A stretch of DNA of 64,000 nt, taken from positions 1 to 64,000 of the IMG/VR virus record IMGVR_UViG_3300025410_000016. The stretch is one strand, 5' to 3'. A model generated the notes under the pieces. The model was not told the DNA's origin, made no database searches, and saw nothing but the letters and a program-made list of their open reading frames with translations. The stretch comes from a virus. Positions 7,132-45,415 of this stretch are shown here, piece after piece; within the stretch, counting starts at the first letter, position 1; each line of letters opens with the position of its first letter. The position numbers and the translations under genes were made by a program.

Positions 7132-8853
7132 ATGGCTTACGCCGTTCCGCCTGCGAAGAACCTCTTTGACGACGCCCAAAGCCCTCGGGAAATGGTCGAG
7201 CGTCGGGAGGAGTTCATCGCAGAGATGACCAAGTCGACCGTTGCTGGTCTGACGGGTGCCACCACGTTCGGGGCGAAGGACCCGAACATGCAGCACGCGC
7301 CAATCCCGGCGGTCGTCACTCCCCCGACCTCGCGTGGCGTGGTCGAGAAGGCTCTTGGTGACCTTGAGGTTGCCAAGTCCACGCTCGGCTCTGCTGCTTG
7401 GGAGTCGGTCTCTAAGGAGTGGACCCTCACCAACCCGCTGTCGACCGGTCTTCTTCCGTTCGACCTTGAGGCTCCGGCGAAGTTGCTGACCCCTCGTCCT
7501 ACCCCGCTGCGGAACTCGATTCCCCGCGTCAAGGGTCAGGGTGGGAGTCGCCGGTTCAAGGTGATTAGTGGCTTCACTGGCACCGGCACTGGTGGGCAGA
7601 CCACCATCCAGCCGGGCATCACTGAGTCGACCACGAACGCTGGCCCCGGTGGGCTTTCGTACGTGCGTGGCCCGTACATCTCGTACGCGGGTTACGACGT
7701 GACGTTGAACTACGTCACCACGTCGCTCAGTGACTCCGTGTCGTGGCAGGCCGAGTACCAGGGCCAGGGCTTCGAGGACGTTCGTTCGCTCTCGAACACT
7801 GCGCTGCTGTACGCGACCATGCTGCTCGACGAGCGCCTGATGATCTACGGGCGTGGGACCACGGGCAACGGCTATGCCGGCGCTCTGGGCACCCCCGCCA
7901 GCGTCACCCTCTCTGCGGTGAACGCTTCCGTGGCTCCCGGTGCGAAGTCGACGCTGACCTCGGGTTCCCCGTGGGTCATCGTGGCTGCGGACGCTGGTGA
8001 CCTGCTCGGCACCACCGGTACTCAGATGCACCAGGGTCCGACCACCGCTGCGGCTTCGGTTGCGGTGACCGCCGGCCAGGCCATCCAGGTCACGGTCGGC
8101 GTGGACGTTGCTGGCGCTCTCGGGTACAACCTGTACGTCGCCTCGGTCCTGGCTGGGCCGTACTACTACGCTGGCCGCACCGGCTACAACGTGGGGTACG
8201 TCACCAGTCAGCCGTCGACCGGTCCCGTCGCTACTGCGTCGCAGTCTGACCAGTCTGCGGTTGCGACCAACTACGACGGTCTGCTGACCAACACGGCGGC
8301 TTCGGGTGGTTACGTGGCTCGACTGAACGCTGCGTTCTCGACCACCAACCCCGGTACGGAGTTCCAGACGGCGTTCGGTGCGCTGTACGAGGCGGTCAAG
8401 GCTGACCCCGAGGAGATCTGGCTGAACGGTTTCGACCGTCTCCAGTTGTCCAACGCCATCGTCAACAACGCGTCGAACTCTGCCTACCGTGTGTTCATCC
8501 CGAACGAGTCGGGCATGGGCGGCGTTCGCGCCGGCACGGTGGTCCAGTCCCTCTTGAACGAGGTGACTGGTTCGGAGATCCCGCTGACGGTCCACCCGTG
8601 GTTCCCGCAGGGCAACGCTCTGGTTCGCCAGAAGACCCTCCCGATTCCTGACAGCAACGTGGCCGAGACCTCGGTCATGGTCATGCCTCAGGACTACGTG
8701 GCGGTACAGTGGCCGGTGACGCAGTTCACCTACGACGCCTCGACCTTCGAGATCGGGACGTTCTGCCACTACGCTCCGGGTTGGAACGGCATCATCCAGG
8801 GCATCCAGGGCACCGGTATCGGCACCCTGCCTCCGTCCTACAGCGACTCGTAG
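7132..8853 (+). CDS. Major capsid protein (573 aa, with a central beta-rich insertion)
   Basis: Position after protease and scaffold; FDLEAPAKLL.P..TPLRN.IPRV.G.G motif; strong codon bias; RBS aaagga. Confidence 0.8.
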   Translation: MAYAVPPAKNLFDDAQSPREMVERREEFIAEMTKSTVAGLTGATTFGAKDPNMQHAPIPAVVTPPTSRGVVEKALGDLEVAKSTLGSAAWESVSKEWTLTNPLSTGLLPFDLEAPAKLLTPRPTPLRNSIPRVKGQGGSRRFKVISGFTGTGTGGQTTIQPGITESTTNAGPGGLSYVRGPYISYAGYDVTLNYVTTSLSDSVSWQAEYQGQGFEDVRSLSNTALLYATMLLDERLMIYGRGTTGNGYAGALGTPASVTLSAVNASVAPGAKSTLTSGSPWVIVAADAGDLLGTTGTQMHQGPTTAAASVAVTAGQAIQVTVGVDVAGALGYNLYVASVLAGPYYYAGRTGYNVGYVTSQPSTGPVATASQSDQSAVATNYDGLLTNTAASGGYVARLNAAFSTTNPGTEFQTAFGALYEAVKADPEEIWLNGFDRLQLSNAIVNNASNSAYRVFIPNESGMGGVRAGTVVQSLLNEVTGSEIPLTVHPWFPQGNALVRQKTLPIPDSNVAETSVMVMPQDYVAVQWPVTQFTYDASTFEIGTFCHYAPGWNGIIQGIQGTGIGTLPPSYSDS

Positions 8854-8865
8854 TCGCTAGCAGTA

Positions 8866-8923
8866 CCAAGGCTCCCGCGATGGTTCTTCGTGCCGGTTCG
8901 ATTCCGGCAGCGGGAACTCTTGG
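8866..8923 (+). ncRNA. tRNA-like structure (acceptor stem plus T-arm, no D or anticodon arm)
   Basis: TGCCGG-TTCGATT-CCGGCA T-arm (8891-8909) enclosed by TCCCGC/GCGGGA and CCAAG/CTTGG stems. Confidence 0.55.
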
Positions 8924-8968
8924 GGCGCTCTGCGCTCCTTCCGTCCCTTCCGATCTGAGAGGTCTTAC

Positions 8969-9286: not shown

Positions 9287-9297
9287 GAGAAAACAAC

Positions 9298-9558: not shown

Positions 9559-9560
9559 CC

Positions 9561-10058: not shown

Positions 10059-10067
10059 GGGGTCATC

Positions 10068-10815: not shown

Positions 10816-10831
10816 ACCAGGGTGGCTGGTG

Positions 10832-11148: not shown

Positions 11149-11154
11149 GCCCTT

Positions 11155-11270: not shown

Positions 11271-12389
11271 ATGAAGATCGCCTACTTTACGACCGACTGG
11301 CAGCAATCCCCGACCGACGTTCCCGGCAAGATCCAAATGTCCTACGGGGGCACCTTCTACTACCGAGGTGCGCTCCCCGCTGCTGCACTAGCCCAGCAGG
11401 GCTACGAAACGGTCTTGTCGTGGCGGCTTGAGCAGGCCCCTGATGGGCATCTGAGAGCGTTTGGTGTTGACGGGGAGTGGCATGACCCGGACATCTTTTG
11501 GACGCAGAGATGGATGCACAAAGACGCTGCAGAGCAAATGCGTCGAGCAAGGGCCGCTGGTCAGATCGTCATTGCTGACCTCGATGACGACTTCTGGTCA
11601 CTCGGTAAGACGAACCTTGCCTATCACACCACTGATCCCAAGAACAATCCTGATTTCAATCGTGAGCACTACAAAGCCATGCTTAGTGAGTGCGACCTCG
11701 TAACGGTCTCGACCGATGCTCTGCGTCGTCGGGCCGAGTCTTTCGGCGTGCCCGCCATTGTTGTCCGCAACTCCATCGACATCCAAAACTGGCCGCAGAA
11801 TGATCCGACGAGCAATGGCATGATCGGTTGGGTTGGGGGTATCCAGTGGCGTGCCTACGACCTAGAGATCCTGAAGCCGTGGCTCCCGCAGTTTCTCCGT
11901 GACTATGGCATCCCGGTGTACCACGGTGGGAACAGCAACGTGCCGGACGTTCCGAAGTTCCATCAGAAGACCGGGATCGACCCTACTGAAACCAACGTCT
12001 TGATGGCTCCACTTTGTCACATTGCGGATTACCCGAGGCTTTGGGCACCAATCAACGTCTCGCTCATTCCCTTGGAGCGCGTTCCCTTCAATGATGCGAA
12101 GTCGTGGCTCAAGCAACTTGAATCCTGCGCTGCAGGCGTGCCCTACGTCGTCTCTCACGGCTTCCACGAGCAAGACCTCTTGCTTGCTGAGTCTGCTGGT
12201 CGAGTGGCAAAAAATGAGAAGCCCCGTCAGTGGCGTGAGCACCTTGAGGAACTGCTCGACCCTGAGGTGCGACGAGTCGAGGGTGCAGCGAACCGCAAGG
12301 TCGCTGAAGCCCATGACATCCGACTGAGGTGGCGTGATTGGGAGAACGCCTACGCCACCGTCGTCCCTGGCATCGGTGGTGAGCAGTGA
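11271..12389 (+). CDS. Glycosyltransferase (GT-B fold, GT4-like)
   Basis: YYRG.LP, DLDDDFW, DLVTVST..L, RNSID, IGWVGG, PL....FN.AKS.LK.LE..AAGVP.V.S motifs. Confidence 0.85.
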   Translation: MKIAYFTTDWQQSPTDVPGKIQMSYGGTFYYRGALPAAALAQQGYETVLSWRLEQAPDGHLRAFGVDGEWHDPDIFWTQRWMHKDAAEQMRRARAAGQIVIADLDDDFWSLGKTNLAYHTTDPKNNPDFNREHYKAMLSECDLVTVSTDALRRRAESFGVPAIVVRNSIDIQNWPQNDPTSNGMIGWVGGIQWRAYDLEILKPWLPQFLRDYGIPVYHGGNSNVPDVPKFHQKTGIDPTETNVLMAPLCHIADYPRLWAPINVSLIPLERVPFNDAKSWLKQLESCAAGVPYVVSHGFHEQDLLLAESAGRVAKNEKPRQWREHLEELLDPEVRRVEGAANRKVAEAHDIRLRWRDWENAYATVVPGIGGEQ

Positions 12390-13168
12390 AGATCGGCATC
12401 GGGATCACCACCTACAACCGTCCCGAGTACGCCGAGAAGTGCGCCAAGTCCCTAGCACGCCTCGACGTAGACGGCGTGTACTTGGTGAACGATGGCTCTG
12501 ACCCGAAGCACCGTGGCGCGTATGAGCGTGCGTACAAACCCATCCAGCGGGTCAATGGATCTGTCTATGTCGGCGAGCAGAACCGAGGCGTTGCCGCAGC
12601 GAAGAACGCGCTGCTCCAACGGATGCTCGTAGACGGAATGGACCGACTCTTCTTGATCGAAGACGACATCTTGATCACTGACCCGGCGTGTCTCTCTGCC
12701 TACGTTGAAGCCGCTGAAGCCGCCGGCCTTCACCATCTCTCCTTCGCACACCACGGCCCAGCAAACCTCGGTGGCCCGGTCAAGGTGGAAGGAAAAGTGG
12801 AGTTCTACCCGCATAGCGTTGGTGCGTTCACCATGTTCACTGCCGAGTGCTTGAACGCCGTTGGCTTGCTTGATGAGCACTTGCATAACGCGTGGGAGCA
12901 TGTCGAGCATGAACTCCGGTTGATCGCTGGTGGTTGGATGCCCGGCGCAGATGCGTACTGCTACCCAGACCTTGCTGACTCGGCTGCTTTGTTGAAAGAG
13001 ATTCCCGGCAGTATCGAACGCTCTTCAATTCGAGTGCGGTCCGATTGGGCGCAGAGTATCCGTGAGGGGTTGGTCTACTGGAAGAGCACTCGCCCGAACA
13101 CCTACGCCATGCTGTTCGGTGAGGGGACTCCGCTAGAGCACTACGCTCAGCAAGTGACGGGGGGTTAG
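12386..13168 (+). CDS. Glycosyltransferase family 2
   Basis: GITTYNR, VNDGS, NRGVAAAKN, FLIEDD, EHVEH. Confidence 0.9.
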   Translation: MKIGIGITTYNRPEYAEKCAKSLARLDVDGVYLVNDGSDPKHRGAYERAYKPIQRVNGSVYVGEQNRGVAAAKNALLQRMLVDGMDRLFLIEDDILITDPACLSAYVEAAEAAGLHHLSFAHHGPANLGGPVKVEGKVEFYPHSVGAFTMFTAECLNAVGLLDEHLHNAWEHVEHELRLIAGGWMPGADAYCYPDLADSAALLKEIPGSIERSSIRVRSDWAQSIREGLVYWKSTRPNTYAMLFGEGTPLEHYAQQVTGG

Positions 13169-13170
13169 TT

Positions 13171-13707
13171 ATGGCGCATCAACAGCAACGTGAGTTCATT
13201 GCTTCGCTCACTGAGCAGTTCCCGCAGTTCTTTGTGGGCGGTCACATCTTGGAAGTAGGTTCGCTGAACATCAACGGCACCGTGCGAGACTTCTTCTGCG
13301 ATCCCGTGAAGTACGTGGGGGTTGACGTGGCGGACGGCCCGTGCGTGGATGTTGTCTGTCAAGGCCAAGACCTCGCGTTCCCTGATCAGACCTTCGACGT
13401 GACGGTGAGCGCGGAGTGCTTTGAACACAACCCGTTCTGGGCCGAGACGTTTACGAACATGGTTCGCATGACCCGTAGGGGTGGCCTTGTGTTTTTCACC
13501 TGCGCTACCGAGGGTCGTAAAGAACACGGCACGACTCGAAGTGAACCAGAGACTTCACCCTTGACGGTGGCGCAAGGATGGGATTACTACCGCAACCTCA
13601 CTGAGGCTGATTTTGTTGAGGCTACCGACCTCTCGGCGTTCCGCTCCTATGAGTTCTCGACGAACGATGAGGTTCATGACTTGTACTTCTGGGGGATCAC
13701 GCTATGA
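13171..13707 (+). CDS. Class I SAM-dependent methyltransferase
   Basis: LEVGSLNINGTVR, YVGVD...GP.VD, FDV..S.ECFEH. Confidence 0.9.
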   Translation: MAHQQQREFIASLTEQFPQFFVGGHILEVGSLNINGTVRDFFCDPVKYVGVDVADGPCVDVVCQGQDLAFPDQTFDVTVSAECFEHNPFWAETFTNMVRMTRRGGLVFFTCATEGRKEHGTTRSEPETSPLTVAQGWDYYRNLTEADFVEATDLSAFRSYEFSTNDEVHDLYFWGITL

Positions 13708-14360
13708 GGGTTGGGTTCGTTGGTATCACCGATGGACGAGGCTCGAACCTTGTCGACACTCTGCGCTCTGCAGAGGCTCACCTAAAATACGATTGGTACA
13801 AGCGCTACTTGTTCAACGACGCTGCAGATCTTGAGTACGGGCGTTGGTTGACGCAAACGTTCCCTGACTACATGAAGATCCATCACTACCCGCGTAGGGG
13901 ACTTGGGGGGATGGTGAAGAACGTGTGGACTCACGCTGTTGCTTTGGGTTGGGATTACCTGTGGCATGCCGAGGACGACATGCTCTACACCTCCGATATT
14001 GACGTGGCGCACATGATTGAGATCATGGAAGAGAACCCGGACCTCGCACAGTTGGCCCTGAAGCGTGCGGCGTGGTCCCCTGAAGAGATCTCTGCCGGCG
14101 GGTTTATGAACATGGCCCCCGATCAGTACCGGCAGGCAGACGGGTTTATCAGTCAGCAGAGGCTCTTCACCTTCAACCCGTGCTTGATCCGCAGAGAAGC
14201 AATGTGCCAAGCACTCGATATCGCCCCGGTCATGTTGGAGCGAGAAGTTACTGACACACTCGTGGCGCAGGGCTGGTCCTTCGGGTACTTGGGGGCTTTG
14301 GATGATCCTCCGGTCGTCACTCACACCGGGAACCTTCGAGCGCCGGGTTGGCAACTGTGA
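13704..14360 (+). CDS. Glycosyltransferase (GT-A fold)
   Basis: ITDGR, YLWHAEDD (ExD/DxD), FTFNPCLIR, V.H.G. Confidence 0.75.
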   Translation: MRVGFVGITDGRGSNLVDTLRSAEAHLKYDWYKRYLFNDAADLEYGRWLTQTFPDYMKIHHYPRRGLGGMVKNVWTHAVALGWDYLWHAEDDMLYTSDIDVAHMIEIMEENPDLAQLALKRAAWSPEEISAGGFMNMAPDQYRQADGFISQQRLFTFNPCLIRREAMCQALDIAPVMLEREVTDTLVAQGWSFGYLGALDDPPVVTHTGNLRAPGWQL

Positions 14361-14926
14361 CCACCGTCTTGGTTGGCTATGGATCTCATGGCAAAGACAT
14401 TGAGGCGATCTGGAAGCGCACCAAGACCCCTGAGGTGCTGATCGTCTGCGATGAGGACCCGACGAAAGGACACGCACTCCCCGATGCCCAACTCTTCGAC
14501 TCGGTCATCTTTGGCTCCAACTACCCCGCTGTTCGTTACGCTATGGCACAGCGGATTGAGCACGGACCAGCCCTACCCGTGCTTGATCCTGCCGCAGTCA
14601 TTGGAACGGACGTGTTCGCAGCGCGAGGTTGCGTCATCGCCCCTGCCGCCGTCCTCCTCTGCAGCGTGTACCTCGGGGTTCACGTCCACGTAAACTACGG
14701 CGCTCAGATGACCCGTTGCACGGTTGGCGAGTTCTCAACGATCAGTCCCGGTGCAACAATCTGCGGCGATGTGAACATTGGCAGGCGGTGTCTGATCGGA
14801 GCCGGCGCAACCGTGTGCGACCGCTCGGCGATTGGACATGACGTGACCATTGGGGCGGGGGCAATCGTGCCTCCGCAATCGTTCGTCCCTGATGGGGTGA
14901 CCGTCATCGGGGTGTGGAAGGGATGA
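14357..14926 (+). CDS. Sugar acetyltransferase, hexapeptide-repeat (PglD/NeuD-like)
   Basis: N-terminal VGYGSHGK followed by left-handed beta-helix repeats (ISPGATICGDVNIGRRCLIGAGATV...IGAGAIV); GTGA overlap. Confidence 0.85.
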   Translation: MTTVLVGYGSHGKDIEAIWKRTKTPEVLIVCDEDPTKGHALPDAQLFDSVIFGSNYPAVRYAMAQRIEHGPALPVLDPAAVIGTDVFAARGCVIAPAAVLLCSVYLGVHVHVNYGAQMTRCTVGEFSTISPGATICGDVNIGRRCLIGAGATVCDRSAIGHDVTIGAGAIVPPQSFVPDGVTVIGVWKG

Positions 14927-15669
14927 TCGCCGCCTGCTACACCTGTCGTAATGAGATTGGATTGGTTGAAGTCTCACTCCGGCATATGTTGGCAGAAGGT
15001 ATTGACCACCTCTACGTTGCCGACCACTGCAGTACGGACGGCACTCGCCAAGTCCTTGACCGGTTGGCTGAAGAGACCGGGCGCGTGACTGTGCTTGAGA
15101 ACTCCGACGAGTTCTACCGCCAAGTTCATTGGGTTCAACTGATGATTGACCGTGCCCGAGACGAGGGCTATGAATGGATTGTCCCGAGTGACGTAGACGA
15201 GTTCTGGTACGCACAGGACGGTCGGATCATCGCTGACGTAATCGCCGATTGTGGCACCGACAAACTCTACGCCCCGATGTACTTGCACCGTGATTGGAAT
15301 ACTCGCACTGCACCTGCAAAGCCGCTTCCCAAGGTGGCGTTTCGCCTTTTGGCTGGTGCTCAGATCACCGTTGGAAATCACGAAGTCTCCATACAAGGCG
15401 GGCGCAACGACGTGCTTGCCTTGCGAGAGATCCAGTACTTCTCCCGTGAACATTTCATCCAGAAAACTCGTGCATCAGCCGCAACGATTGGGCCGGCTGA
15501 GCGTGCGAGTGGAGTGGGATGGCATCACACACACCGCGAAGCAATGACCGATGAGCAGATGGAGGCAGAATGGGAAGCACTGTGGGCGGGCGGGACGATC
15601 TGCGATCCAATCCCAAGTCACTTGCCGTCAGCATCGTCGTACCTGTCTACGGGCCAGAGCACTTCCTAA
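14923..15669 (+). CDS. Glycosyltransferase family 2-like
   Basis: RNE....E..LRH....GID...V.DH.STDGT, WIVPSDVDEFW. Confidence 0.85.
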   Translation: MIAACYTCRNEIGLVEVSLRHMLAEGIDHLYVADHCSTDGTRQVLDRLAEETGRVTVLENSDEFYRQVHWVQLMIDRARDEGYEWIVPSDVDEFWYAQDGRIIADVIADCGTDKLYAPMYLHRDWNTRTAPAKPLPKVAFRLLAGAQITVGNHEVSIQGGRNDVLALREIQYFSREHFIQKTRASAATIGPAERASGVGWHHTHREAMTDEQMEAEWEALWAGGTICDPIPSHLPSASSYLSTGQSTS

Positions 15670-16304
15670 GGTCCATGCTCGCCGCAGTTGAGGCGAACAC
15701 TGACGGGGACTACGAACTCATCTTGGTCGACAACGGGACCGGCTATGAGGTGGACGATCCACACGTCACCGTGCTCCGTAATGAAGAGAACCAAGGCTTC
15801 GCCCGTGGCTCGAACATGGGGGCACTGGCCGCACGGGGCAACATCGTGGTCATGTTGAACGTGGACACCGAGCCACAGCCCGGTTGGATTGTGCCGTTGC
15901 TCCTAGCGTTTGAGGACCCGCAGGTTGCCGTCGCCGGCCCACGACTCATCTACCCAGACGGACGCCTGCAGTGCGCCGGGATTCGCACCTGGCACGGGGG
16001 AGGTAACGCCGGTGGCGAGAACCGTCGAGACGAGCACCCGTCGAACTCTGATGAAGACGGAGTGACCGGGGCTTGCCTAGCCGTCCGCACCGCGGTGTTC
16101 TCCGAACTCGGTGGGTTCGATGAGCAGTACTGGAATGGGTACGAAGACGTGGATCTGTGCCTTCGGGTGAAAGAGGCGGGGCACAAGATCGCCTACGTCG
16201 CTGAGTCCGTGGTCGTCCACCACGAGAGCGCCACCGGCCCCGAGCGGTGGAGCCGCACCCATGACAACGTGGCCCGCATGAACGCCTGTTGGGGTGACCG
16301 ATGA
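15570..16304 (+). CDS. Glycosyltransferase family 2 (WbbL-like)
   Basis: VSIVVPVY, LILVDNG, NQGFARGSN.G, LNVDT, VTGACL, GGFDE.Y....EDVDLCLR; exact start uncertain. Confidence 0.9.
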   Translation: MGSTVGGRDDLRSNPKSLAVSIVVPVYGPEHFLRSMLAAVEANTDGDYELILVDNGTGYEVDDPHVTVLRNEENQGFARGSNMGALAARGNIVVMLNVDTEPQPGWIVPLLLAFEDPQVAVAGPRLIYPDGRLQCAGIRTWHGGGNAGGENRRDEHPSNSDEDGVTGACLAVRTAVFSELGGFDEQYWNGYEDVDLCLRVKEAGHKIAYVAESVVVHHESATGPERWSRTHDNVARMNACWGDR

Positions 16305-16972
16305 ACCGGGCACGACTCGTCACCCGCAACGAGGTCACTTGGGAGGTTGCTGCACCATCGTCGAAGTTGGGCTACGACTTCTGGGGCGATTGGGAGAAGA
16401 GTGCGTGGGAGCCCTACACCCTTGAGGTGATTGACCGCTTCGCTGACCCGCACAAGACGTTCATCGACCTTGGTGCGTGGATCGGCCCTACGGCGATGTG
16501 GGCTTCCCGCAACTATGGACGGGTCTTGGCTGTTGAGCCTGACCGGTTGGCCTACTCGTATCTGCGAGCAAACGTGATTGCCAATACTCCTGCGGTGCAG
16601 ACACTCCGAGTGGCTATTGCAGACTACGACGGGGAGATCAACTTGGTCCCTGATCCAGAAGAGGGATGGGGGTCGTCGATGACCCGCGTGGCACTAGAAG
16701 GTGACCCGGTGTCGTGCATGTCGATCACGACGTTGTGTGAGCAGGCCGGCGTGTTCCCTGATCGTATCGGGCTGATCAAGATGGACATCGAGGGTGCGGA
16801 GTCCATCGTGCTCCCGTCGCTCACGGAGTTCTGCATCGAGCACCACGTCCCGCTGTTCGTGTCGATGCACCAGCCTTGGTGGCAGCGACCGCTCGACGTG
16901 TCGTGCTTCGATCAGTTCTCCTCCGTCGAGGGGATCCCCTCGGGTTGGAACTCGGTGCTCGCTCTCCCCTGA
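16301..16972 (+). CDS. FkbM-family methyltransferase
   Basis: FIDLGAWIG, LAVEPD, LIKMDIEGAE. Confidence 0.9.
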   Translation: MNRARLVTRNEVTWEVAAPSSKLGYDFWGDWEKSAWEPYTLEVIDRFADPHKTFIDLGAWIGPTAMWASRNYGRVLAVEPDRLAYSYLRANVIANTPAVQTLRVAIADYDGEINLVPDPEEGWGSSMTRVALEGDPVSCMSITTLCEQAGVFPDRIGLIKMDIEGAESIVLPSLTEFCIEHHVPLFVSMHQPWWQRPLDVSCFDQFSSVEGIPSGWNSVLALP

Positions 16973-24091: not shown

Positions 24092-24108
24092 CCACCTTAG
24101 GAGACTTG

Positions 24109-24907: not shown

Positions 24908-25294
24908 ATGGCGGAAGACCAAGGTAGTGAGCACGCGTCGATTAGGGATGTCTACGAACTCGTAGACCGAAGCCGCAAAGAAACCACCGAACAAATTGGT
25001 GCGCTTTCTGAGCGCTTCGAGACGTTTGCCCAGGCGAATGAGCACCGTCTCTCCGTTGTAGAAACTCATCAGGCAGCCCAAGCGCAGCAGATGTCCGAAG
25101 TCTCCTCTCGGCTCGACAAGCACAACATTGACATTGGCAATTTGAAGGAATCTCAAAAGGCCAGTGCCGCCGCTGACGCTGCGATTGAGGAGAAGAGCAG
25201 GACGGATTCTAATCGCCACATTGCCCTAACGGGCGCTGCAGCCGCGATTGCTGCAGCGCTGGCGACCCTCTTCAATCGCATCCACTTTCACTAA
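24908..25294 (+). CDS. Coiled-coil protein with C-terminal hydrophobic helix (holin or lysis accessory-like)
   Basis: Follows the endolysin; ggagg RBS; C-terminal IALTGAAAAIAAALATLF. Confidence 0.55.
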   Translation: MAEDQGSEHASIRDVYELVDRSRKETTEQIGALSERFETFAQANEHRLSVVETHQAAQAQQMSEVSSRLDKHNIDIGNLKESQKASAAADAAIEEKSRTDSNRHIALTGAAAAIAAALATLFNRIHFH

Positions 25295-25325
25295 CCGCAC
25301 GACCCCAAAGAGAAGGGCGGGTCAA

Positions 25326-25973
25326 GTGTCGAGTGTCGCCATCCTTGTGCCGATCCTCAATCGTCCGCATCGCATCGAGCCTTTGTTGCAATCCATTGCA
25401 GACTCGACCACCTTGCCGCACCGTGTCGTGTTCGCTGCAAGCGATCAGCCGAGCATTGACGAACTGACCAGACTCGGTGCGTCATTCATTACCGATGAGG
25501 GCGGGGACGAGGGATCTTACCCGAGGCGGATCAACCGGCTCTACGCAGAGACGACCGATCCCTACCTCCTCCTTGCAGCCGACGACTTAGCGTTCCGTCC
25601 GCAGTGGCTCGAAGAGGCCATGAAGGTCATGGAAACGCTTGACGGTGTCGTGGCGTTGAATGATCAGTACAACCCGGCCGGTGTCCACTTCCTCGTGAGC
25701 CGCAACTACATCGAGACGTTCGGTGGTTGCATGGACGATTCAGGTGTCGTGCTCCATGAAGGCTACCGGCACGCCTACTGCGACGATGAGTTCCGTGCGA
25801 CGGCTCGTGCTCGTGGGAAGTGGGCTCTCGCCCATTCCGCAGTGATTGAACATCTCCATGTTGGCGCAGGCAAAGCCCCGATGGATGAGACTTACCGCAT
25901 TGGCGAAGCCGCCATGCCCCATGACTTTGGCGTCTTCATGTCACGCGCCCACCTCTGGAACACAGGAGATTAG
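25326..25973 (+). CDS. Glycosyltransferase family 2-like (stand-alone)
   Basis: AILVP.L.RP, YLLLAADDL.F...WLE, Y.H.YCDDE, VIEHLH. Confidence 0.8.
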   Translation: MSSVAILVPILNRPHRIEPLLQSIADSTTLPHRVVFAASDQPSIDELTRLGASFITDEGGDEGSYPRRINRLYAETTDPYLLLAADDLAFRPQWLEEAMKVMETLDGVVALNDQYNPAGVHFLVSRNYIETFGGCMDDSGVVLHEGYRHAYCDDEFRATARARGKWALAHSAVIEHLHVGAGKAPMDETYRIGEAAMPHDFGVFMSRAHLWNTGD

Positions 25974-26336
25974 ATGGCGACGATCACTCAACTCCCCGCT
26001 CCCCTGACGCTGAACGCTGTCGCAGGGAACCCGGCCATCTTGACGTTCGCCTTGACGGCGACTGACTCGTCTGGCAACCCGATCCCCTGGTCGTCGATCA
26101 CGAACTACGCGATGAACGTCTACGACCAGTACGGCAACGTCCTCACTGCGGCCACGCCAACGGTGACCTCTCCCTCGTCGGGGAACGTGACCGTGACGTG
26201 GAGCGCTGCACAGACCTCCGTGCTCGGCCAGCACCAGCAAGCCCGCATGGCGTTCTCTGTCTACATCAACGGCGTTGGTCCCTACACCCTCGCATCTGGC
26301 CAGATCGTGATGACCCCGGAGGCGTACCCCTCGTGA
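25974..26336 (+). CDS. Putative fibre adaptor / BppU-N-like virion protein
   Basis: Beta-rich 120 aa protein (G....LTF...D..G.P...T.Y...G.VTVTW...QT); aggag RBS; coupled to the giant fibre gene. Confidence 0.5.
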   Translation: MATITQLPAPLTLNAVAGNPAILTFALTATDSSGNPIPWSSITNYAMNVYDQYGNVLTAATPTVTSPSSGNVTVTWSAAQTSVLGQHQQARMAFSVYINGVGPYTLASGQIVMTPEAYPS

Positions 26337-29300: not shown

Positions 29301-32300
29301 CTGGGATCTTCCCGAACAGCATCACGCTCCAGAGCCCGTGGACTCACGCAGATCAAACCGGAACTGCATGTCAGTTGGCGGTCGGCCTAACGAGCGGCGT
29401 ATCGAGCGGGTCAACGCTGACCGTGTCGCCGCTGAAGTTCGCTCTGCCAAGCGGGGCAACGGTCTACGTCTTCGCTAGCACGTCCACCTACCAGGCGTTC
29501 ACCCTGACGGCGCGAGCCGAGATTGGGGCGACAACGCTCTACGTGACTGCACAGACCGCGAACGCTACGTACAACACCGCCACCAGAGTGGTCGTGGTCG
29601 GCTCGGGAACAGTGACTCTGACGCAGAATGTCTACTTGCCTGCTGCGACTGCTGCCGGGCAACAGGTCGTGGTCGAGCGGACGCTTGGCGTCGCAATGAC
29701 GGTGTATGCCCCGACGAACTCGACTCTCGGTGGCAATAACTCCTCTTACACCATCCAAGCCGCTGGAGCCAACCTGGGAGCAGTAGTCGTGTTCCAGAGT
29801 GCCACTGGCGGAGAATGGCAGCCGGTTGGATCGTTCTCTACTGACTTTTCCCACGGTTACCAAGTCTCTGGCACGCTGGAAATGTACAACAACTCGCAGT
29901 TTCGAGCGGTCCCAACGACGTTCACGTCGGCGCAAACGCTTGGGTCGGGTAGCGGCCAGTACCAGAACCTGTCGATGCTGTTCTCGAACTCATCCACGAC
30001 CCCGTACACCTCCACGTTCGGGACGTCGATGACGACGGGCATCGTCATGTGGATTGAGAACTCTGCATCGTCGGCTGGCGCGGTCATCTTCAACTGCGCT
30101 GGGACCGGGACCATCGGAGGACTCTCTTCCTTGACGCTCCCTCCAGGTTCCAGCATGTGCGTTCGAGTTGACGTCGCGGGGAATAACCCCGTCATCGCCG
30201 TGCTCGGTTTCTTCGGTCCAAACAGTGTCGAACCGGCGACGCTGCTCGAAGGGCTGCCGTTCACGGTGTACGGCCACTCGTTCACGACGCCGCTGCAGAA
30301 CAACGCGATCTCTTGGCCTCCCGCTCAGGGCGGCACCTTCGCCCCGGCTGGGAACGGACTGGCATGGTCATGGCCGAACCGAGTCGCGCTGCGACTGCGG
30401 ACGATGGACTATGCGCTCGGTCGCCTCGGCTCGCTCCGCCTCGGAGGCATCCCCGGCACGACCCTGGCGACTACGGCGAACACGATTGTGTCTGGCAATG
30501 GCCTGCGGAACTCTGGTGGTGTCTCGGACGCTGACGCCTACAGCGACCTCCAGTGGAACCCCGGTCATGGCGCTGTCGCAGGATCGTACGGCTTGACTCC
30601 TGCATCTGGGCTGACGACGCAGAGCGCAGCGGACCCCGGAATCGTGGCGATGAGTTGTGCAGTCAACGACGCGACCGCTCAGACCCTCCACCAGAACTCC
30701 GTCTTCGGCGGATGGTGGACAATCATGCACCGGGGCGGCACGGGCTACTCGTCGAACAACCTCTACATGTGGAGGGACTACGGCATCACGTTCCAGGGAA
30801 CGGGGCTCAACGCGAACTCGAACGGGATCGTAGGTAACGGTAGCAACTCGTACAGCACGCTCTACTGCTCGCCGCTGCCCTACACGATCTCATCTGGGCA
30901 GACGTTCCTGATTGCTAACGGTTCGTCTCTGGGCAACGGGGCTTCGTACCTGGCAGCGACGGCGAGCGCTACTGCCTCCATCGGAGCGACGCAAATCAAC
31001 ATCAACACCGTGACCCCTGCCTCCGGCTCATACTCGGTGAGTCAGACGTCCAGCCCGGTGAAGATGTACCCCGCCTACCTTCTCGGCACCGAAGCGACCG
31101 CCGCTGCATGGAGCACGGCGACCTCCGCAGCAAGCGTGCAGGCAGCGCTCGCTGCGCTGAACTACTCAACGACAGTGAAGGTGTCGACGCCAACATCACC
31201 AACGGTGTCCACGACGAACGGCTCGACCTCTGCATCAGTGACGTCAGGGACAACCTATGCAGCGGACTACTTCCAAGTCGGCGACTACGCCACGATCAAC
31301 GCGGCTGGTTACACCGTCGCATCCGTGGGACCCGCGTCAGTCTTCCTCCTCGGCAGCAATGCTGGGTCGACCGGGTCCTACACGGCGACCATCGTCAACC
31401 GCTACCGCTTCTACTACACGACTCCCGCTCCCGTTGCGGGGGCGGGGTCACTCCTCGGGAACCCGGTGTCTCTAGTCGGCATGGCTGGGGCGGCCCAAGA
31501 CACGGTCACCACAGCGTACGGGGGCTACACCAGTGACACGCCGCTCTACACCATCCCGCAGTCTGGCATTATCACCACGACAGCGGGGACGACTTCAGCA
31601 AGCATCCCCGCAGCAGGCACCATCACGACGACTCGCGGGTCGCAGATCGCTTCATTCACTGGGCCTCCTCCTGCTCCTGGCCAGCCCATCTGGATTGCTG
31701 GGGCGGGACTGAGCGGTACGCACTTCCAGACCAACGTCCAAGGGGTCGGCGTGGCGTGGGGCTTGACGGCCTCGCAGGTCCGGCTGGCGAGCGCCGCGAG
31801 CGCGGGCACCGGGTCGAGCGCGAACTGGTGGACGGTCCCCGCTCAGTACGACGCGATCCAGTCCGCCCCTACGGTCCTGACAATCACGCCTGGGGCGACG
31901 AGCGGCAACGCTCAGGCGACTGGTGGATACCTCACTGCATGGTACGGAGGGGCGTCCGCGGTTGTCTCGTACAACACTCCAGCATCGGCTGTCGCGACCG
32001 CCCTGCAAGGTCTCACGATCGGTTCTGGGGCGTCTTGCTCGGCAACTGGTGGGTCGGTGAACTCTGCTGCCACTGTCCTGACGTTCACCTCTCCAGTCGC
32101 CGGGCTCTGGGTCGACTTCTCGACGCTCACGACGAACTTCGGCATGGCCGGTGGCTACACCGCGGCCTGGACGACGGCGAGCGCGAGCGGCACGTTCAGC
32201 GGTGTCCCGACATGGAGCGGCACGCCCTTCTCGTCCAACCTGACCTGCACAACTGCTGCGACGATGGCAGCGGCTGCATCGGTCAACGCTCGCCTCGCAT

Positions 32301-33916
32301 CGAGCCAGTGGTATGGCGTGAGCAGTGCGATCTACGGTGGAGCGGGCTTCGCCGGGGTCAAGGCTGCGTGGAAGAACGGCCTGACCGCGTCGCTGCGGTG
32401 GTTCAAGTCTGACGCTGGCGCAGCGAACAACGGCTACGCAGCCTTCAGTGGCCCGAACAAGGCGACGACGACCCTCCCATCAACTTCGACTACCCGATGC
32501 ACCACGAGCATTTACGGCGCTGCCGTGCCGCCCGGCTACACGGGTGGGCAGTTCCCCTGGGGGCAGGTCATCTACCTTCAAGGTAACGGTTTAGACACTT
32601 CGCTTTCATGCCCGCAAGTGGGCGCGTACGCGACGGTAACGGGTGGCGGTTTCACTACGGTCAGCGGGACTGTCCTGTATGTCGGCCCGAACTCGTCGTA
32701 CTTCGTGATTAGCAACGCGACATCACAGAGCACGCTGAGCGGCATCGTAGCGAACTACACTCTCGGTGGCGCCAGCGTCGGGGCAGCATCGGTCTCCCTC
32801 AACGGCTCAACCACTCCAGTTGTCGGCGACTACCTCTATGACGTCGTGGTCGGACACACGAGTTATCTGGCCACGGGAACGAAGATCACGTCAGTGACGG
32901 GAGCCTCTCCGAACTGGGTTGTCGGCTTGAGCGCTTCGGTGGTTACGGCAGCAACAGGTGACGTGGTCACCATGAGCACGTACGACTTGCTGACGGCGAC
33001 GTTCAATGACTGGGTGACTGAGGCAGACTCATACGCCACGGGCACACCGACGTACACGTCGAACACTAACTTCGGTGGCTCTGGGAACCAGAGCGCTACA
33101 GCGCCGAACGCTGGAGTCGTGAACCTGGGCTGCTCGAACACCTACGGCAGCACCATCCGGACGACCAGTGTCTCGTCGACTCCTCCGTCGTACGTGCTCA
33201 CGGTCAACGACGCTCAGAGCGCTGGCGAAGTCATCGCCCTCTACCCCGTCTACCCGTACCAGAACAACGACCTCACGGTGTCCAACAGTTACTCCACGGG
33301 CTTCTCGATGGTCGCCAGCGTCGGCCAGACGAGGTACGGCGTGCGCACCTATGGGATGCCGTCGGCGAGGACTCCCTTGCAGACGAGCCCGCTGCGGACG
33401 CAGGGCACGGTGGCGGCTCCGCTCTCGGTGACTGGTGGGTCGGTGAACACGGTGACCATCACCAAGCCTGCTGGGGACACCCTCAGCCCGACGCTCCACA
33501 CGGGTCTGCCGGTGGAGTTCGACTGCGTCTTCACCACGACGCAATACCCGCCACTCGTCCTTCTCGTGGCGGAGTACTCACCACCGGCGCAGACGCTGCT
33601 CTTCATGTCACAAGCCTTCTGCGAACTCATGCAGTCGTACGCGGACGTGTCGAGTCAATCGGAGTTCGCATGGTACGTGGTGACCGTGCCTCCGATGACG
33701 ACTCTTCTCGCCAGCGATCTCAACGGCTCGACCTACCAGCAACTCCACCCGAACAACACCGGCCAGCAGAAGATGACGACGTACCTGTCGAACTGGATGG
33801 CGGCGAACGTGCCGCTCTGGTACTACGGGCCGCTCCCCTTCAGCCGGTACAACTCTCAAGGCATCGCACTGAGCGCTGGCACTACCGGCCTCGGCTCACG
33901 TATCGGCTACGCCTAG
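26333..33916 (+). CDS. Giant (~2,527 aa) fibre/spike-like virion protein with a dispersed SGNH-hydrolase-like domain
   Basis: Fibre motifs DLGGT..P.V, GQVLQWNG, VTSVNG.TG.V.L, LPLSGGTLTG, TIDSYGRIT, GAPTSGTF..GD...AGSPG.W; G/S/T/A/V-rich; VYGHS...AVND...LHPN..G; GTGA overlap. Confidence 0.8.
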   Translation: MTEPVNVTVGAASVGLAVSLQDQTVALTAPVGAASVALGVTVGGAVSFSLGTIDPVYSVGVGSAASIGVYSASVGQLGVVALGTDLGGTAASPIVVGLDGTPLGPLAVASVGQVLQWNGTAWVPGTITSGVTSVNGATGVVVLNAASVGADPAGSAAAASMQLLPLSGGTLTGPLAGTSASFSGEIVAQDFSATGIGSASAGARFVGGTTSGAPTSGTFNAGDFIIDQTGKIWFCNVAGSPGQWFTAGKTAVVRSTSASVGPNEQTVWNGTTAAQTLTLPTAAVSGYTNILVNYSTTLAGSGTVTIAPNTGQSLNYFGKTGNYNLSQGESVILSYVATSATTGTWYAVEANNLAYAFFPEASITATGSTLNNAAPLALGYNLVTGATASANYGSGTGVILPKPTILGTQILVENTSANWLVMYPTPGGNIDGGGQDSPVWLPPNCVWTGVLNSLSPVAWTSLVPGMVGSPGQTTIAYGYGNASVGLTTTGVSANTYGLSASTSPTLTIDSYGRITAASSTPIVIPASQLSSGSVNTTAGQLTGGGALSSNPTLGLATSGVSANTYGLSASTSPTLAIDAYGRTTAASSTPIAIPHTSVTDWASNVSALGLSVQAATGGTTWNGTAADGGTIVQWTGSGTSTYNLPTTVPSTPWWVIVTNLNTTGNVQLAPGSKLLNNGSTGYTVQPGQSALVWSDGSNYQMFANFSPATYTFLNNLATAFTLITTSASVFQGSTNTRVVFTGSAFGQTVTFPCYSAGAINIVTNDSSQPINIVSGNTAGTAGVGVITKLDGTTTVAGGVGSASVSGTPTITSGTGGSVTVGAATFPFPASGGSIYVVHNGAGYAMPYTSYSASTFVIPSTYSGPTVTLGPNDLVTSYGFLLSPNSSVMMLQQTSTAWWVVSQSSSANSLYGGPVWNYVPLTNILTSAITNGSTITSLSTSALPYAINAGSVQLVLGATNQILATSGASVGSTSIPITGSPVASFGASVGTGIFPNSITLQSPWTHADQTGTACQLAVGLTSGVSSGSTLTVSPLKFALPSGATVYVFASTSTYQAFTLTARAEIGATTLYVTAQTANATYNTATRVVVVGSGTVTLTQNVYLPAATAAGQQVVVERTLGVAMTVYAPTNSTLGGNNSSYTIQAAGANLGAVVVFQSATGGEWQPVGSFSTDFSHGYQVSGTLEMYNNSQFRAVPTTFTSAQTLGSGSGQYQNLSMLFSNSSTTPYTSTFGTSMTTGIVMWIENSASSAGAVIFNCAGTGTIGGLSSLTLPPGSSMCVRVDVAGNNPVIAVLGFFGPNSVEPATLLEGLPFTVYGHSFTTPLQNNAISWPPAQGGTFAPAGNGLAWSWPNRVALRLRTMDYALGRLGSLRLGGIPGTTLATTANTIVSGNGLRNSGGVSDADAYSDLQWNPGHGAVAGSYGLTPASGLTTQSAADPGIVAMSCAVNDATAQTLHQNSVFGGWWTIMHRGGTGYSSNNLYMWRDYGITFQGTGLNANSNGIVGNGSNSYSTLYCSPLPYTISSGQTFLIANGSSLGNGASYLAATASATASIGATQININTVTPASGSYSVSQTSSPVKMYPAYLLGTEATAAAWSTATSAASVQAALAALNYSTTVKVSTPTSPTVSTTNGSTSASVTSGTTYAADYFQVGDYATINAAGYTVASVGPASVFLLGSNAGSTGSYTATIVNRYRFYYTTPAPVAGAGSLLGNPVSLVGMAGAAQDTVTTAYGGYTSDTPLYTIPQSGIITTTAGTTSASIPAAGTITTTRGSQIASFTGPPPAPGQPIWIAGAGLSGTHFQTNVQGVGVAWGLTASQVRLASAASAGTGSSANWWTVPAQYDAIQSAPTVLTITPGATSGNAQATGGYLTAWYGGASAVVSYNTPASAVATALQGLTIGSGASCSATGGSVNSAATVLTFTSPVAGLWVDFSTLTTNFGMAGGYTAAWTTASASGTFSGVPTWSGTPFSSNLTCTTAATMAAAASVNARLASSQWYGVSSAIYGGAGFAGVKAAWKNGLTASLRWFKSDAGAANNGYAAFSGPNKATTTLPSTSTTRCTTSIYGAAVPPGYTGGQFPWGQVIYLQGNGLDTSLSCPQVGAYATVTGGGFTTVSGTVLYVGPNSSYFVISNATSQSTLSGIVANYTLGGASVGAASVSLNGSTTPVVGDYLYDVVVGHTSYLATGTKITSVTGASPNWVVGLSASVVTAATGDVVTMSTYDLLTATFNDWVTEADSYATGTPTYTSNTNFGGSGNQSATAPNAGVVNLGCSNTYGSTIRTTSVSSTPPSYVLTVNDAQSAGEVIALYPVYPYQNNDLTVSNSYSTGFSMVASVGQTRYGVRTYGMPSARTPLQTSPLRTQGTVAAPLSVTGGSVNTVTITKPAGDTLSPTLHTGLPVEFDCVFTTTQYPPLVLLVAEYSPPAQTLLFMSQAFCELMQSYADVSSQSEFAWYVVTVPPMTTLLASDLNGSTYQQLHPNNTGQQKMTTYLSNWMAANVPLWYYGPLPFSRYNSQGIALSAGTTGLGSRIGYA
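27782..28113 (+). repeat. Internal ~42 aa duplication in the fibre gene
   Basis: GLTTTGVSANTYGLSASTSPTLTIDSYGRITAASSTPIVIP versus GLATSGVSANTYGLSASTSPTLAIDAYGRTTAASSTPIAIP. Confidence 0.85.
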
Positions 33917-44500: not shown

Positions 44501-44879
44501 ACTCTACGACAGCGACGCTTTGGCATTGGCGCAAAACTACGCCGCTTGGTACAACTTGCCAATCAACCGCATCCAGCAAATTGTCCAGACCTCTGCAATG
44601 GCCGGCGGTGCCAACCTTGTGCCGATGCTCAACGCCAAACTGATTGACCGGGTGACGATTCGTTACACCGGACAGACTCCTGGTCCCACGTTCGTTCAAG
44701 ACTCCGTGATTGAATCGATCAAAGATGAGATTGCCCTTGACAATGGTCCAATGTGGACGACGACATGGGCGATGAGTCCGTATGAGATCTTGATGAACGC
44801 TATCTACCTGTACGACTTCCAAACCCCTGACGCCACGTTTACCGGTGCTTCGGTGACGACCGGCCAACTCGTTCTCTAG
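41514..44879 (+). CDS. Minor tail protein with LamG/concanavalin-like domain
   Basis: GRQHELDR.Q......FDN..G.F; WSVELW; DG.WHHVV.T....LYVDG; G.LQDVALYNYAL...QV..HY. Confidence 0.8.
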   Translation: MTISAVQNVNALGGASVSTIAATLPSPTGSGNTLIATIACQYGLSVASIVDTAGNPWIRAAVASGTGASVGQSIGFPTTTSSSPVNLPIAGYGTSMAVLNPAVFSASGGSGFVGISGSVFAITYTGISGNSLLNVNCTVALTAPAYSPVGVSLPGTGNYCEIWYSRGVKSASTTASVTFSGPLTAGAVNIAEFNGIWYVDPLDQTGATFTNYNYSAGASVGATSASMSPRTNGELVVSVIANDQRAAAPAGYSSLPLSTYSGWNAAYSILSGSATVAPTWQLTTASSVQRWAIATATFVSGAVGLNPRLQFPETLVQISTQSDYLAPLKGYGVWRNISSYLRSATLGPLGRQHELDRVQASQGQFVFDNRTGVFNTWNTSSFLYSGGYGLEPMNPIRVVAAWNGVTYPKYYGYLTAVEPQIADVLNVDTRVNASDLFQIMSLRYLASNNYFQQIMGDNPVAVYRMGDPNNQIAVADSSGNGYTMSLIPNESGMPLFGDNGFLLYDANTSVDLTAGTKISNGGIYGVNRYGVSTPNNHSASIVTPLASASAGWSVELWYKYTGTSDMTSGTALFKDAVSTTSESSLVTPPSSDGFGFGNLVTGNSIPTRTLVVANEVPISQGIALSNAATSTSSSDMLTCLPGSYTLFSASTVGGQFSLRIGSAVDGKTNTVSGPGSPNVYWDRLSFGVYTASASGAVNGAGIWNHQYYLPYGATYSQTLLDGAWHHVVCTWTSASVVSLYVDGALDTAFTSPHFNAAYATGMNFATPAQISFGCDMNNPSLPSPSTPANALPGNLQDVALYNYALNASQVAQHYQVGTWFASSEVGASVGPASAGRLNKALEVIGLDPTVVLVCPYPFKTVLYPETNYTTTTSHLNYLQTMTQTEPGLIFQGPDGYVYAHNRQYQYLNPTTASAAYVYGDDQSSQYHYDGKSLQIAKDDLDVWNDIQAQSGRTANALTGQTAGALQEWGPAQSVTVSVSAIKYGNRTMQGLTALQQLYDSDALALAQNYAAWYNLPINRIQQIVQTSAMAGGANLVPMLNAKLIDRVTIRYTGQTPGPTFVQDSVIESIKDEIALDNGPMWTTTWAMSPYEILMNAIYLYDFQTPDATFTGASVTTGQLVL

Positions 44880-44887
44880 GAGCAGAC

Positions 44888-45415
44888 ATGACCGCTTGGA
44901 CCCCACTCACTCCCCATGCTGCAGGCGAGTACATCTCGCTCAGTGATTGGAACAACGCAGTTGGGAACTTGAACTTCCTGTACGAGCGTGCTTACGCTAT
45001 TGCGTACAACTCCTCATCTGCCTCTGTTCCCACTGGTGGGACGAAGCAGGTCCCGCTCACTGCGTCCGCTCCCGGTGTCGTGAACTACGGCGCGACGGTG
45101 TCAGCAAATAACGTGGTCGTTCCTTTCGACGGACTCTACCAAGTGTTGTTTGCCGTGAACTTCACGTCCGCTGCCGGCTCTGGCTCGAACGCCGTCTACT
45201 CCGCTGTGTACCAAAATGGCAATCAGGTGATCTTGGGTTCTGAAGTTCCTTCTTATGTCCAAGGAGGTGCAACGACCAATGGCAGTGGATTGATTGCTTG
45301 CAGTGCCAATGACACGATAGGTTTGTACGCATCGAACCTTTCAGGAAGCACCCTGTACACCAACAACGCGTTCACTGCGACGTTTCTGCATGTGAACTTT
45401 ATGGGAGCAAACTAA
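44888..45415 (+). CDS. Minor tail protein (C1q-like beta domain)
   Basis: W.......GE......WN..V.NLNFL; V.P..GLYQV; L..C..NDTI.L. Confidence 0.65.
   Translation: MTAWTPLTPHAAGEYISLSDWNNAVGNLNFLYERAYAIAYNSSSASVPTGGTKQVPLTASAPGVVNYGATVSANNVVVPFDGLYQVLFAVNFTSAAGSGSNAVYSAVYQNGNQVILGSEVPSYVQGGATTNGSGLIACSANDTIGLYASNLSGSTLYTNNAFTATFLHVNFMGAN

Follow-up and report, generated by a model that had tools for sequence, protein, structure and literature searches.

Glycosylation of virions by phage enzymes is already known from a few mycobacteriophages, whose particles are reportedly O-glycosylated by glycosyltransferases that the phages themselves encode. In bacteria, protein-serine O-glycosyltransferases include SdgA/SdgB and GtfA/GtfB of the Firmicutes, which act on Ser-Asp repeats and on serine-rich repeat adhesins, respectively. 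The heptosyltransferases TibC/Aah act on the autotransporters TibA/AIDA-I, and the O-glycosylation sequon of the Bacteroidota is D-(S/T)-(A/I/L/V/M/T). In mycobacteriophages the virion glycans are carried by the C-terminal ends of the subunits of capsid and tail tube, and they act as a shield for the particle (Freeman et al. 2023, as cited in an excerpt of PMC12619734), and in Rhodococcus phages the presence of a glycosyltransferase plus a methyltransferase was taken as a hint of glycosylated virions (excerpt of PMC13313380). No acceptor motif for phage virion glycosylation was described in the full-text literature searched, a collection outside which most subscription journals fall. Here we analyse a stretch of 64,000 nucleotides (hereafter the window), corresponding to positions 1-64,000 of the virus record IMGVR_UViG_3300025410_000016, in which the tripeptide Ala-Ser-Val (ASV) accumulates in the virion proteins and a cassette of putative glycan-modifying enzymes is encoded between the capsid and neck genes. 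We lean towards the view that Ala-Ser-[Val/Ile] (AS[VI]) is a serine O-glycosylation sequon read by one of these enzymes, a glycosyltransferase of the GT-B type (11271-12389), and that the glycan would be extended by the GT2 glycosyltransferases, methyltransferases and acetyltransferase of the cassette.

The Ala-Ser-[Val/Ile] word and its distribution

ASV is found 40 times in a set of seven virion proteins (5,190 amino acids, aa), compared with 5.84 +/- 2.45 in 1000 composition-preserving shuffles, none of which reached the observed figure (maximum 14). A first-order Markov model gives an expectation of 14.7. When isoleucine is admitted in the last position the count rises to 49 AS[VI] vs 8.43 expected, again not reached by any of the 1000 shuffles. 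Control words stayed at chance with 5-9 occurrences vs about six (SAV 8, VSA 5, AVS 5, SVA 7, VAS 9, ATV 5 and GSV 7). The test with seven proteins was a repetition, carried out because an eight-protein pool (5,642 aa) had taken in an exonuclease-like protein encoded after the tail genes. In that larger pool ASV (42 vs 5.98, Poisson p 8.5e-22) ranked first among all tripeptides and SAS second (p 1.8e-6); the latter is found 24 times vs 7.44 expected in the seven virion proteins. The other 104 open reading frames (ORFs) of the phage genome (21,127 aa) contain 8 ASV vs 9.5 expected and 15 AS[VI] vs 15.7, and AS[VI] is at expectation in the ADP-ribosyltransferase (ART) head protein, the MuF protein, the tape measure, the chaperones and the portal. 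The 51 AS[VI] sites are embedded in 35 different 9-mers and use both serine codon families; given these varied codons and the permuted words at chance, the signal is at the protein level. The ASV excess is thus a real property of the proteins, and only outward-facing components of the particle show it: capsid, neck, tube, distal tail and fibre.

An earlier note on this DNA had drawn attention to the word from manual counts. All its counts per protein, together with the codon positions given for the capsid gene, were reproduced exactly, and the strings quoted in it (VASVGPASV, GGASVGAASV, NAASVVASVS, SASISGASVA and VTSVNGATGVVVLNAASVGA) are all present. The comparison with shuffled and permuted controls that it proposed came out in its favour. 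Its statements that varied codons speak against a DNA repeat, and that the internal ART protein lacks the word and the tape measure has a single copy, held as well, the last two counts being near expectation.

The word is A-S-[V/I] with alanine strictly required before the serine and leucine avoided after it. In the seven virion proteins the residue preceding Ser-[Val/Ile] is Ala 5.9 times as often as expected, with Gly at 1.0x, Thr at 1.1x and Ser at 0.3x, and the residue following Ala-Ser is Val (6.9x) or Ile (3.5x), with Thr at 1.0x and Leu at 0.2x (1 vs 4.8). There are also weaker preferences for Ser directly before the Ala, for Thr two positions before it, and for Gly after the Val followed by Ala; Ser or Thr precedes 13 of the 49 AS[VI] sites.

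The candidate sites are internal. In the capsid they fall between residues 256 and 337 of 573, with ASV at 256, 265, 308 and 337 (codons 7897, 7924, 8053 and 8140), and in the tail tube between residues 22 and 197 of 329; AS[VI] is absent from the final 40 residues of either protein, and neither of them ends in a long Ser/Thr tail. The capsid profile matched none of the PDB sequences. The tail tube has the double-domain fold of the P74-26/T5 pb6 type (fold matches 8xan, 8ed0 and T5), and in its model (pLDDT, predicted local distance difference test, 86.6) three of the seven sites are located exactly at a loop-to-strand junction and the rest in short strands or loops. Judging from this model, the motif is usually seated at the passage from a loop to a beta-strand. 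The giant fibre showed no internal repeats in a self-BLAST and no Pfam match at E <= 1; its residues 160-330 found no match among phage records, and the VTSVNG-type pattern around its AASVGA string appeared nowhere else in the compared loci. The first ~45 codons of this ORF as called from GTG 26198 (26198-26330) are rich in Arg, Pro, His and Cys and resemble non-coding sequence; the true start of the fibre probably lies downstream. The neck protein is a conserved component of the virion module with homologues in 78 loci.

The genes of the relatives were collected by homology searches of all ORFs and with a GC-dependent gene caller. Among 109 tail tube homologues, all 106 with at least 46% identity carry 2-7 AS[VI] (about 0.3-0.6 expected), and the word is missing from the three at 36-38% identity. 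The tube sites at positions 22, 92/93, 169, 173, 192 and 197 of the reference are held by 33-91 of the 109 homologues, position 192 by 91, and within the indel-rich loop 92-105 the word moves between columns. Among the best 120 of 2,878 capsid homologues, 101 have ASV at position 308 and 102 have AS[VIL] at 265, positions 256 and 337 alternate between ASV and GSV, and a single one lacks AS[VI] altogether. Motif serines of the capsid are more conserved than its other serines (0.84 vs 0.55, p 0.02), and the corresponding values in the tube are 0.64 vs 0.48 (p 0.11). A homologue of the distal tail protein, found in record L003, has 7 sites vs 1.18 expected.

Outside the clade, that is, in Streptomyces-type prophages and low-GC freshwater viral contigs (capsids at 37-48% identity), each capsid, neck or tube homologue has 0-2 sites, at or below expectation. 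The aligned sites of 53 tube, 85 capsid and 74 neck-protein homologues from these loci are occupied by other tripeptides or by gaps, and several of the motif sites fall in clade-specific insertions. Pooling dereplicated ORFs of at least 250 aa, the outside-clade loci gave 72 ASV vs 100.4 expected; the clade loci, with the window removed, gave 60 vs 18.5. High-GC, Ala-rich relatives have ASV at or under expectation. The AS[VI] excess is clade-specific. We also considered that the word might be a structural necessity of the fold, and this was ruled out: homologues of the same folds outside the clade do without it, and the folds therefore do not need it.

The GT-B gene and its occurrence in related loci

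In 70 of the 71 loci in which capsid and neck genes were found together, the gap between them is at most 1.4 kb and the capsid, neck and tube proteins add up to 0-4 AS[VI]. The sole exception is L032, with a gap of 2,276 bp and 10 AS[VI] in the same three proteins. This gap contains a 369-aa homologue of the GT-B enzyme (E 8e-114) and a homologue of the methyltransferase encoded two genes downstream of it in the window, with no acyltransferase between the capsid and neck genes of the locus and no PF00535 match in the record (88% complete). The GT2 enzymes had been considered as the ones tracking the motif and were ruled out by this record: L032 is motif-rich in the absence of any PF00535 match, therefore the motif does not need them.

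A profile built from the family alignment of the GT-B enzyme was run on motif-rich and motif-poor records. The family is present in six motif-rich records (G000, L032, L109, L031/L180, L030 and L117; one copy in each) and in 0 of 9 motif-poor relatives (L052, L088, L037, L047, L101, L105, L102, L093 and L035), six of which are rated 100% complete; L003 (33% complete) and L004 (18%) are tail-only fragments and uninformative in this respect. The GT-B gene is the only one of the cassette common to all motif-rich records that cover the region downstream of the capsid. L109 is syntenic with the window, the entire cassette included. In L117 (9794-20948) a GT-B gene (58% identical), a gene for a 283-aa protein of unknown nature and a GT2 gene are located directly upstream of a closely related portal, and short Ala/Ser/Asn-rich ORFs of this record without a homologue in the window, of 203, 212 and 124 aa, carry 6, 3 and 2 sites, respectively. 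From these genomes, the presence of the motif appears to depend on the presence of GT-B across the relatives, the satellite-like islands described below excepted. The earlier note had proposed to ask whether capsid and tail-tube homologues from phages lacking glycosyltransferases are devoid of the word and whether phages rich in them carry this or another motif. Capsid, neck and tube homologues of relatives lacking the transferase are indeed devoid of it, and relatives carrying the transferase keep it. Other claims had to be adjusted. The six glycosyltransferases announced there are supported by Pfam for the four GT2 members, and by PHROGs only for the two others (GT-B and the GT-A-like 13704). 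The proposal of ASV as the acceptor sequon of a phage glycosyltransferase stood as regards the excess and the co-occurrence, the attachment itself being what we infer; the word was widened to A-S-[V/I], and the enzyme that tracks it is GT-B and not the GT2 set.

The GT-B enzyme is thus the candidate for reading A-S-[V/I]. Its model has a GT-B fold with two Rossmann-like domains (pLDDT 95.2, predicted template modelling score, pTM, 0.93), and Foldseek matched it to MshA, BshA, PglA, GlgM and PimA at probability 1.00 with template modelling (TM) scores of 0.60-0.67, the best fold neighbours being GT4-type retaining transferases. SdgB (7vfo), a protein-serine glycosyltransferase of staphylococci, appears at rank 26 of the fold matches (E 2.3e-10). 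The sequence had no match among PDB chains. Its nearest Atlas clusters are 97-100% viral, with PF13692/PF00534 in 50-85% of their members, and the whole family comprises 3,098 representatives at E <= 0.001. The residue E284 is invariant in 44 sequences and so are K277 and S278. A tblastn search against 50,697 phage records found matches in 123 of them, the best in Arthrobacter phages (27-28% identity); no Mycobacterium phage was among the 40 matches listed, nor among the ten organism names that cover 121 of the 123 records. The best relative in a cultured phage is that of Arthrobacter phage Atuin (L196, OK040794.2 94217-135113; 28% identity). In Atuin this gene is located among non-structural genes, in the neighbourhood of two more glycosyltransferases, nucleotidyl transferases and a UDP-glucose dehydrogenase.

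Altogether, six glycosyltransferase-like genes, two methyltransferases and one acyltransferase are found between the capsid and neck genes (Table 1). Transferases of the PglL/Wzy_C and PMT types are not encoded in the complete 82-kb genome and no gene for nucleotide-sugar synthesis was seen in the annotated cassette, a gene content that fits a direct, stepwise cytoplasmic transfer from nucleotide sugars of the host. In the mechanism that we propose, the GT-B enzyme would act in the cytoplasm of the infected cell and place the first sugar, taken from a nucleotide sugar of the host, on the motif serine of capsid, neck, tail-tube, distal-tail and fibre proteins. Elongation of the glycan would then fall to the four GT2 enzymes and the GT-A-like protein, and its decoration to the two methyltransferases and the hexapeptide acyltransferase. 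The resulting coat might serve as a glycan shield or adhesion layer, as suggested in the earlier note.

Points against and rival explanations

Several results weigh against A-S-[V/I] being a sequon read by the GT-B enzyme. With the motif-rich records coming essentially from a single clade of related phages, as few as one or two evolutionary events may account for the association between transferase and motif. In addition, capsid homologues encoded in chromosomal islands of Acidimicrobiaceae (53-74% identical to the capsid of the window) keep 3-5 AS[VI], and four of the five genomes lack the transferase family at E <= 1e-10, so that the islands are a counter-example to a strict dependence in cis. 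These islands (L005:3787-15064, L026, L023, L022, L006 and L025) contain an AAA_25 replication-type ATPase, a terminase-large-like gene, the capsid homologue and an integrase; up to 10 kb from the capsid homologue there is no portal, neck or tail gene. They may be capsid-encoding satellites of this phage clade and, to speculate further, their capsids may be coated in trans by the helper phage. We also found 80 further viral loci with homologues of the transferase, mostly at 30-39% identity, and most of them have no AS[VI] excess. When 208 dereplicated ORFs from these loci were pooled, it was SAS that stood out (156 vs 70.4, 2.2x; 0.91x in the outside-clade control loci), with ASV at 1.36x. The enzyme itself stays under the Pfam cut-off for Glycos_transf_1 (PF00534 13.6 bits, E 0.051, vs 26.4). 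In the nucleotide-sugar motif of GT-B C-terminal domains, EX7E, the first Glu is replaced in it by Ala276, eight positions before E284. In the exonuclease-like protein following the tail genes, which is not obviously part of the virion, there are 2 ASV vs 0.17 expected, either by chance or as the mark of an unexpected substrate. Related phage glycosyltransferases, moreover, also modify DNA (Pyle et al. 2024, as cited in an excerpt of PMC12619734).

Among the loci with distant transferases, five of 44-47% G+C (L163, L175, L181, L186 and L194) have a fibre-like ORF of ~1,000-1,150 aa with 5-9 AS[VI] vs 1.5-2.0 expected, and in two of the five SAS and ASV are the top tripeptides of this ORF, partly inside repeated segments. 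In the same five loci (~5553-8312, minus strand) an adjoining ORF of 700-900 aa is made of RTA, GLH and LHT repeats in up to 24 copies; it may result from reading a repeat-containing gene, for example that of a collagen-like fibre, in the wrong frame. There is also a broader version of the sequon proposal, to which we give distinctly less credit and which we put forward only tentatively. Here a phage-specific GT-B family would read A-S-[V/I] in the present clade and x-A-S ([S/T]-A-S) in other subfamilies, GT-B plus a methyltransferase would suffice, as in L032, and the satellites would be coated in trans.

Of the rival explanations, the one that takes the word for a lineage-specific structural or assembly motif, for example the start of a strand after a loop in surface insertions, has the most to build on, and we still hold it to be unlikely. 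The glycosyltransferase cassette would then hitch-hike with the motif and act on DNA, on the host envelope or on other virion residues, and phage glycosyltransferases can indeed target DNA (cited in the excerpt of PMC12619734). The single clade, the conserved position of some sites (capsid 308 in 101/120, tube 192 in 91/109), the islands that retain the motif without a transferase and the distant transferases found in non-structural contexts would all agree with this. However, it would leave one exact tripeptide to be explained in at least five unrelated folds and in ORFs of L117 without a homologue in the window, a tripeptide that same-fold homologues from outside the clade do not have. Furthermore, the sites turn over within loops, the transferase gene of L032 is part of the virion operon, in the gap that separates capsid and neck genes, and a strict Ala at position -1 with Leu avoided at +1 resembles recognition by an enzyme rather than a rule of folding. 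Rather improbable, in our judgement, is a cassette that does glycosylate the virion with A-S-[V/I] as a docking, priming, glycan-binding or host-binding element, the sugars being placed on other Ser, Thr or Tyr residues such as those of the C-termini. The published mycobacteriophage sites are C-terminal (as cited in the excerpt of PMC12619734), and SAS is enriched too (24 vs 7.44) and is the main serine word near the distant transferases, therefore the true determinant may be wider than ASV. Against it, the C-termini of capsid and tube have neither AS[VI] nor a long Ser/Thr tail, and serine is the only nucleophile of the motif and its most conserved position.

We see little chance that the motif serine is modified in some other way (by phosphorylation, by ADP-ribosylation through the phage ART, by acylation or by host glycosylation) and that the link with GT-B is a coincidence. 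The genome does encode an ADP-ribosyltransferase domain and a hexapeptide acyltransferase, but the gene that tracks the motif across the records is GT-B, the virion operon of L032 has only GT-B and a methyltransferase and no acyltransferase, and the ART protein is associated with MuF, as would be typical of injected head proteins. Chance, amino acid composition or a DNA-level repeat can be considered refuted. It is true that Ala, Ser and Val abound in these proteins, but composition, dinucleotide and DNA-repeat explanations were ruled out by the shuffles (0/1000), the Markov expectation (14.7 vs 40), the permuted words at chance, the variety of 9-mers (35 different ones) and the self-BLAST of the fibre, and Ala-rich high-GC relatives do not exceed expectation. 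A sequon read by GT-B is the explanation that we prefer.

The phage, its gene layout and the comparison with described systems

The record is a single contig of 82,209 bp, rated 100% complete, with ~60% G+C; its portal and terminase genes lie outside the window. By its gene content the phage is of the siphovirus-like actinophage type. Among genomes, the capsid gene has its closest relatives in metagenome-assembled ones of Acidimicrobiaceae (53-74% identity), therefore the host is probably an actinobacterium of the Acidimicrobiia. Remoter capsid relatives (37-47%) are in prophages of Streptomyces, Streptosporangium, Amycolatopsis and similar. Megablast against 50,697 records of isolated phages found no near-identical relative of the capsid gene, and tblastn no close relative of the protein, the best having only 25-27% identity.

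Capsid, neck and tube genes adjoin one another in most relatives. The capsid and neck genes, contiguous in 70 of the 71 related loci, are separated here by ~24 kb (9486-33916). Besides the glycan cassette (11271-16972), this insert houses the GT2 gene preceding the giant fibre and the fibre gene itself, a PLD-like nuclease, a PG_binding_1 protein and, within a minus-strand block, a protein with ArdC-N and zincin metallopeptidase domains. The protein encoded in the scaffold position, directly before the capsid gene, gave below-threshold matches to DnaJ-type CXXCXGXG zinc fingers and Anti-TRAP-like proteins in its residues 75-155.

Table 1 Features of the window discussed in the text.
Feature	Position	Strand	Match	Remarks
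ADP-ribosyltransferase-bearing (ART) head protein, 1,185 aa	40..3597	+		Internal control; 0 ASV vs 0.68 expected
MuF protein	3597-4868			
609-aa protein	5281-7110			Directly before capsid gene, scaffold position
Major capsid protein, 573 aa	7132..8853	+	phrog_13692 1.5e-93	4 ASV
Small ORF after capsid gene, 105 aa	8969..9286	+		1 ASV; kept in clade loci
PLD-like nuclease	10174-10815			Inside ~24-kb insert
GT-B (GT4-like) glycosyltransferase, 372 aa	11271..12389	+	phrog_7162 3e-25	Phage-specific family
GT2 glycosyltransferase	12386..13168	+	PF00535 3.7e-8	Homologues in L030, L109, L117
Class I S-adenosylmethionine methyltransferase	13171..13707	+	PF08241, PF13489	
Putative GT-A glycosyltransferase, 218 aa	13704..14360	+	phrog_3047 'galactosyl transferase' 3.5e-7	No Pfam match
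Hexapeptide-repeat acyl/acetyltransferase	14348..14926	+	PF00132 3.4e-12	
GT2 glycosyltransferase	14914..15669	+	PF13704 4.3e-13	
GT2 glycosyltransferase	15570..16304	+	PF00535 1e-20	
FkbM-type methyltransferase	16301..16972	+	PF05050 5.6e-9	
ArdC-N + zincin metallopeptidase	19742-20638			Within minus-strand block of insert
PG_binding_1 protein	24106-24906			Inside ~24-kb insert
GT2 glycosyltransferase	25248..25973	+	PF00535 4.6e-5	Directly upstream of fibre gene; same position in L109
Giant fibre ORF, 2,572 aa as called	26198..33916	+		20 ASV + 4 ASI vs 4.47 expected
Conserved virion-module (neck) protein ('connector'), 315 aa	33939..34886	+		2 ASV + 1 ASI vs 0.41 expected
Tail tube protein, 329 aa	35664..36653	+	PF18906	5 ASV + 2 ASI vs 0.77 expected
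Tape measure protein, 1,134 aa	38094..41498	+		Internal control; 1 ASV vs 0.81 expected
Minor/distal tail protein, 1,121 aa	41514..44879	+	Laminin_G_3 domain	7 ASV + 2 ASI vs 1.63 expected
BclA_C-like tail protein, 175 aa	44888..45415	+		1 ASV
Exonuclease-like protein, 452 aa	45443-46801		phrog_284 'exonuclease' 7.9e-38	After tail genes

If the word is the sequon that we propose, three residues would predict from the sequence alone which serines of which particle proteins are coated. The glycan coats of phages could then be surveyed across metagenomes, and the enzyme might become a tool for glycosylating protein assemblies at chosen sites. A compact, testable pair of enzyme and substrate would be available in the 372-aa GT-B and the tube protein of 329 aa with its seven sites. 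The satellite-like islands that retain the word are a possible case of a helper phage supplying a modification in trans. Should the broader version with several subfamilies be true, sequon-directed sugar coats would be common and evolvable in the particles of uncultured actinophages.

Compared with the enzymes of the Firmicutes, the candidate shares the GT-B fold of SdgA/SdgB and GtfA/GtfB, which transfer a sugar directly from its nucleotide form to serine in short repeated sequence contexts in the cytoplasm. However, the acceptors of those enzymes are long disordered adhesin repeats, and here the word is single and scattered in folded beta-rich virion proteins; moreover, the best fold matches of the candidate are GT4 enzymes of small molecules and lipids (MshA, BshA, PglA and PimA) and not SdgB. 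Like the Bacteroidota sequon, A-S-[V/I] is a tripeptide with a central hydroxyl residue followed by an aliphatic one and is distributed over many unrelated proteins, but position -1 is Ala and not Asp (DS[VI] 4 vs 2.0 expected, AS[VI] 49 vs 8.4). The Bacteroidota system is also periplasmic and lipid-linked, whereas the phage has no PglL/Wzy_C or PMT enzyme and its virions assemble in the cytoplasm. With TibC/Aah there is a likeness in the modification of many serines of a folded, beta-rich surface protein, in the cytoplasm and at short strand-loop elements, although their acceptors are repeats of one passenger domain and here a set of virion proteins would be concerned.

The mycobacteriophages provide the closest parallel. 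Their sites are C-terminal, according to the excerpted source, and the candidate motif is internal, defined by a tripeptide and spread over at least five virion proteins. The host lineage also differs, being here probably the Acidimicrobiia, and the GT-B enzyme (the only one compared) has no Mycobacterium phage homologue among the matches listed. On the other hand, both cases concern phages of actinobacteria whose genes for glycosyltransferases and methyltransferases lie within the virion operon or next to it. In both, the subunits of capsid and tail tube are the targets (presumed ones here), and the process would be cytoplasmic, without a flippase or an oligosaccharyltransferase. By analogy, the present case appears to be the same in kind as the virion glycosylation of mycobacteriophages.

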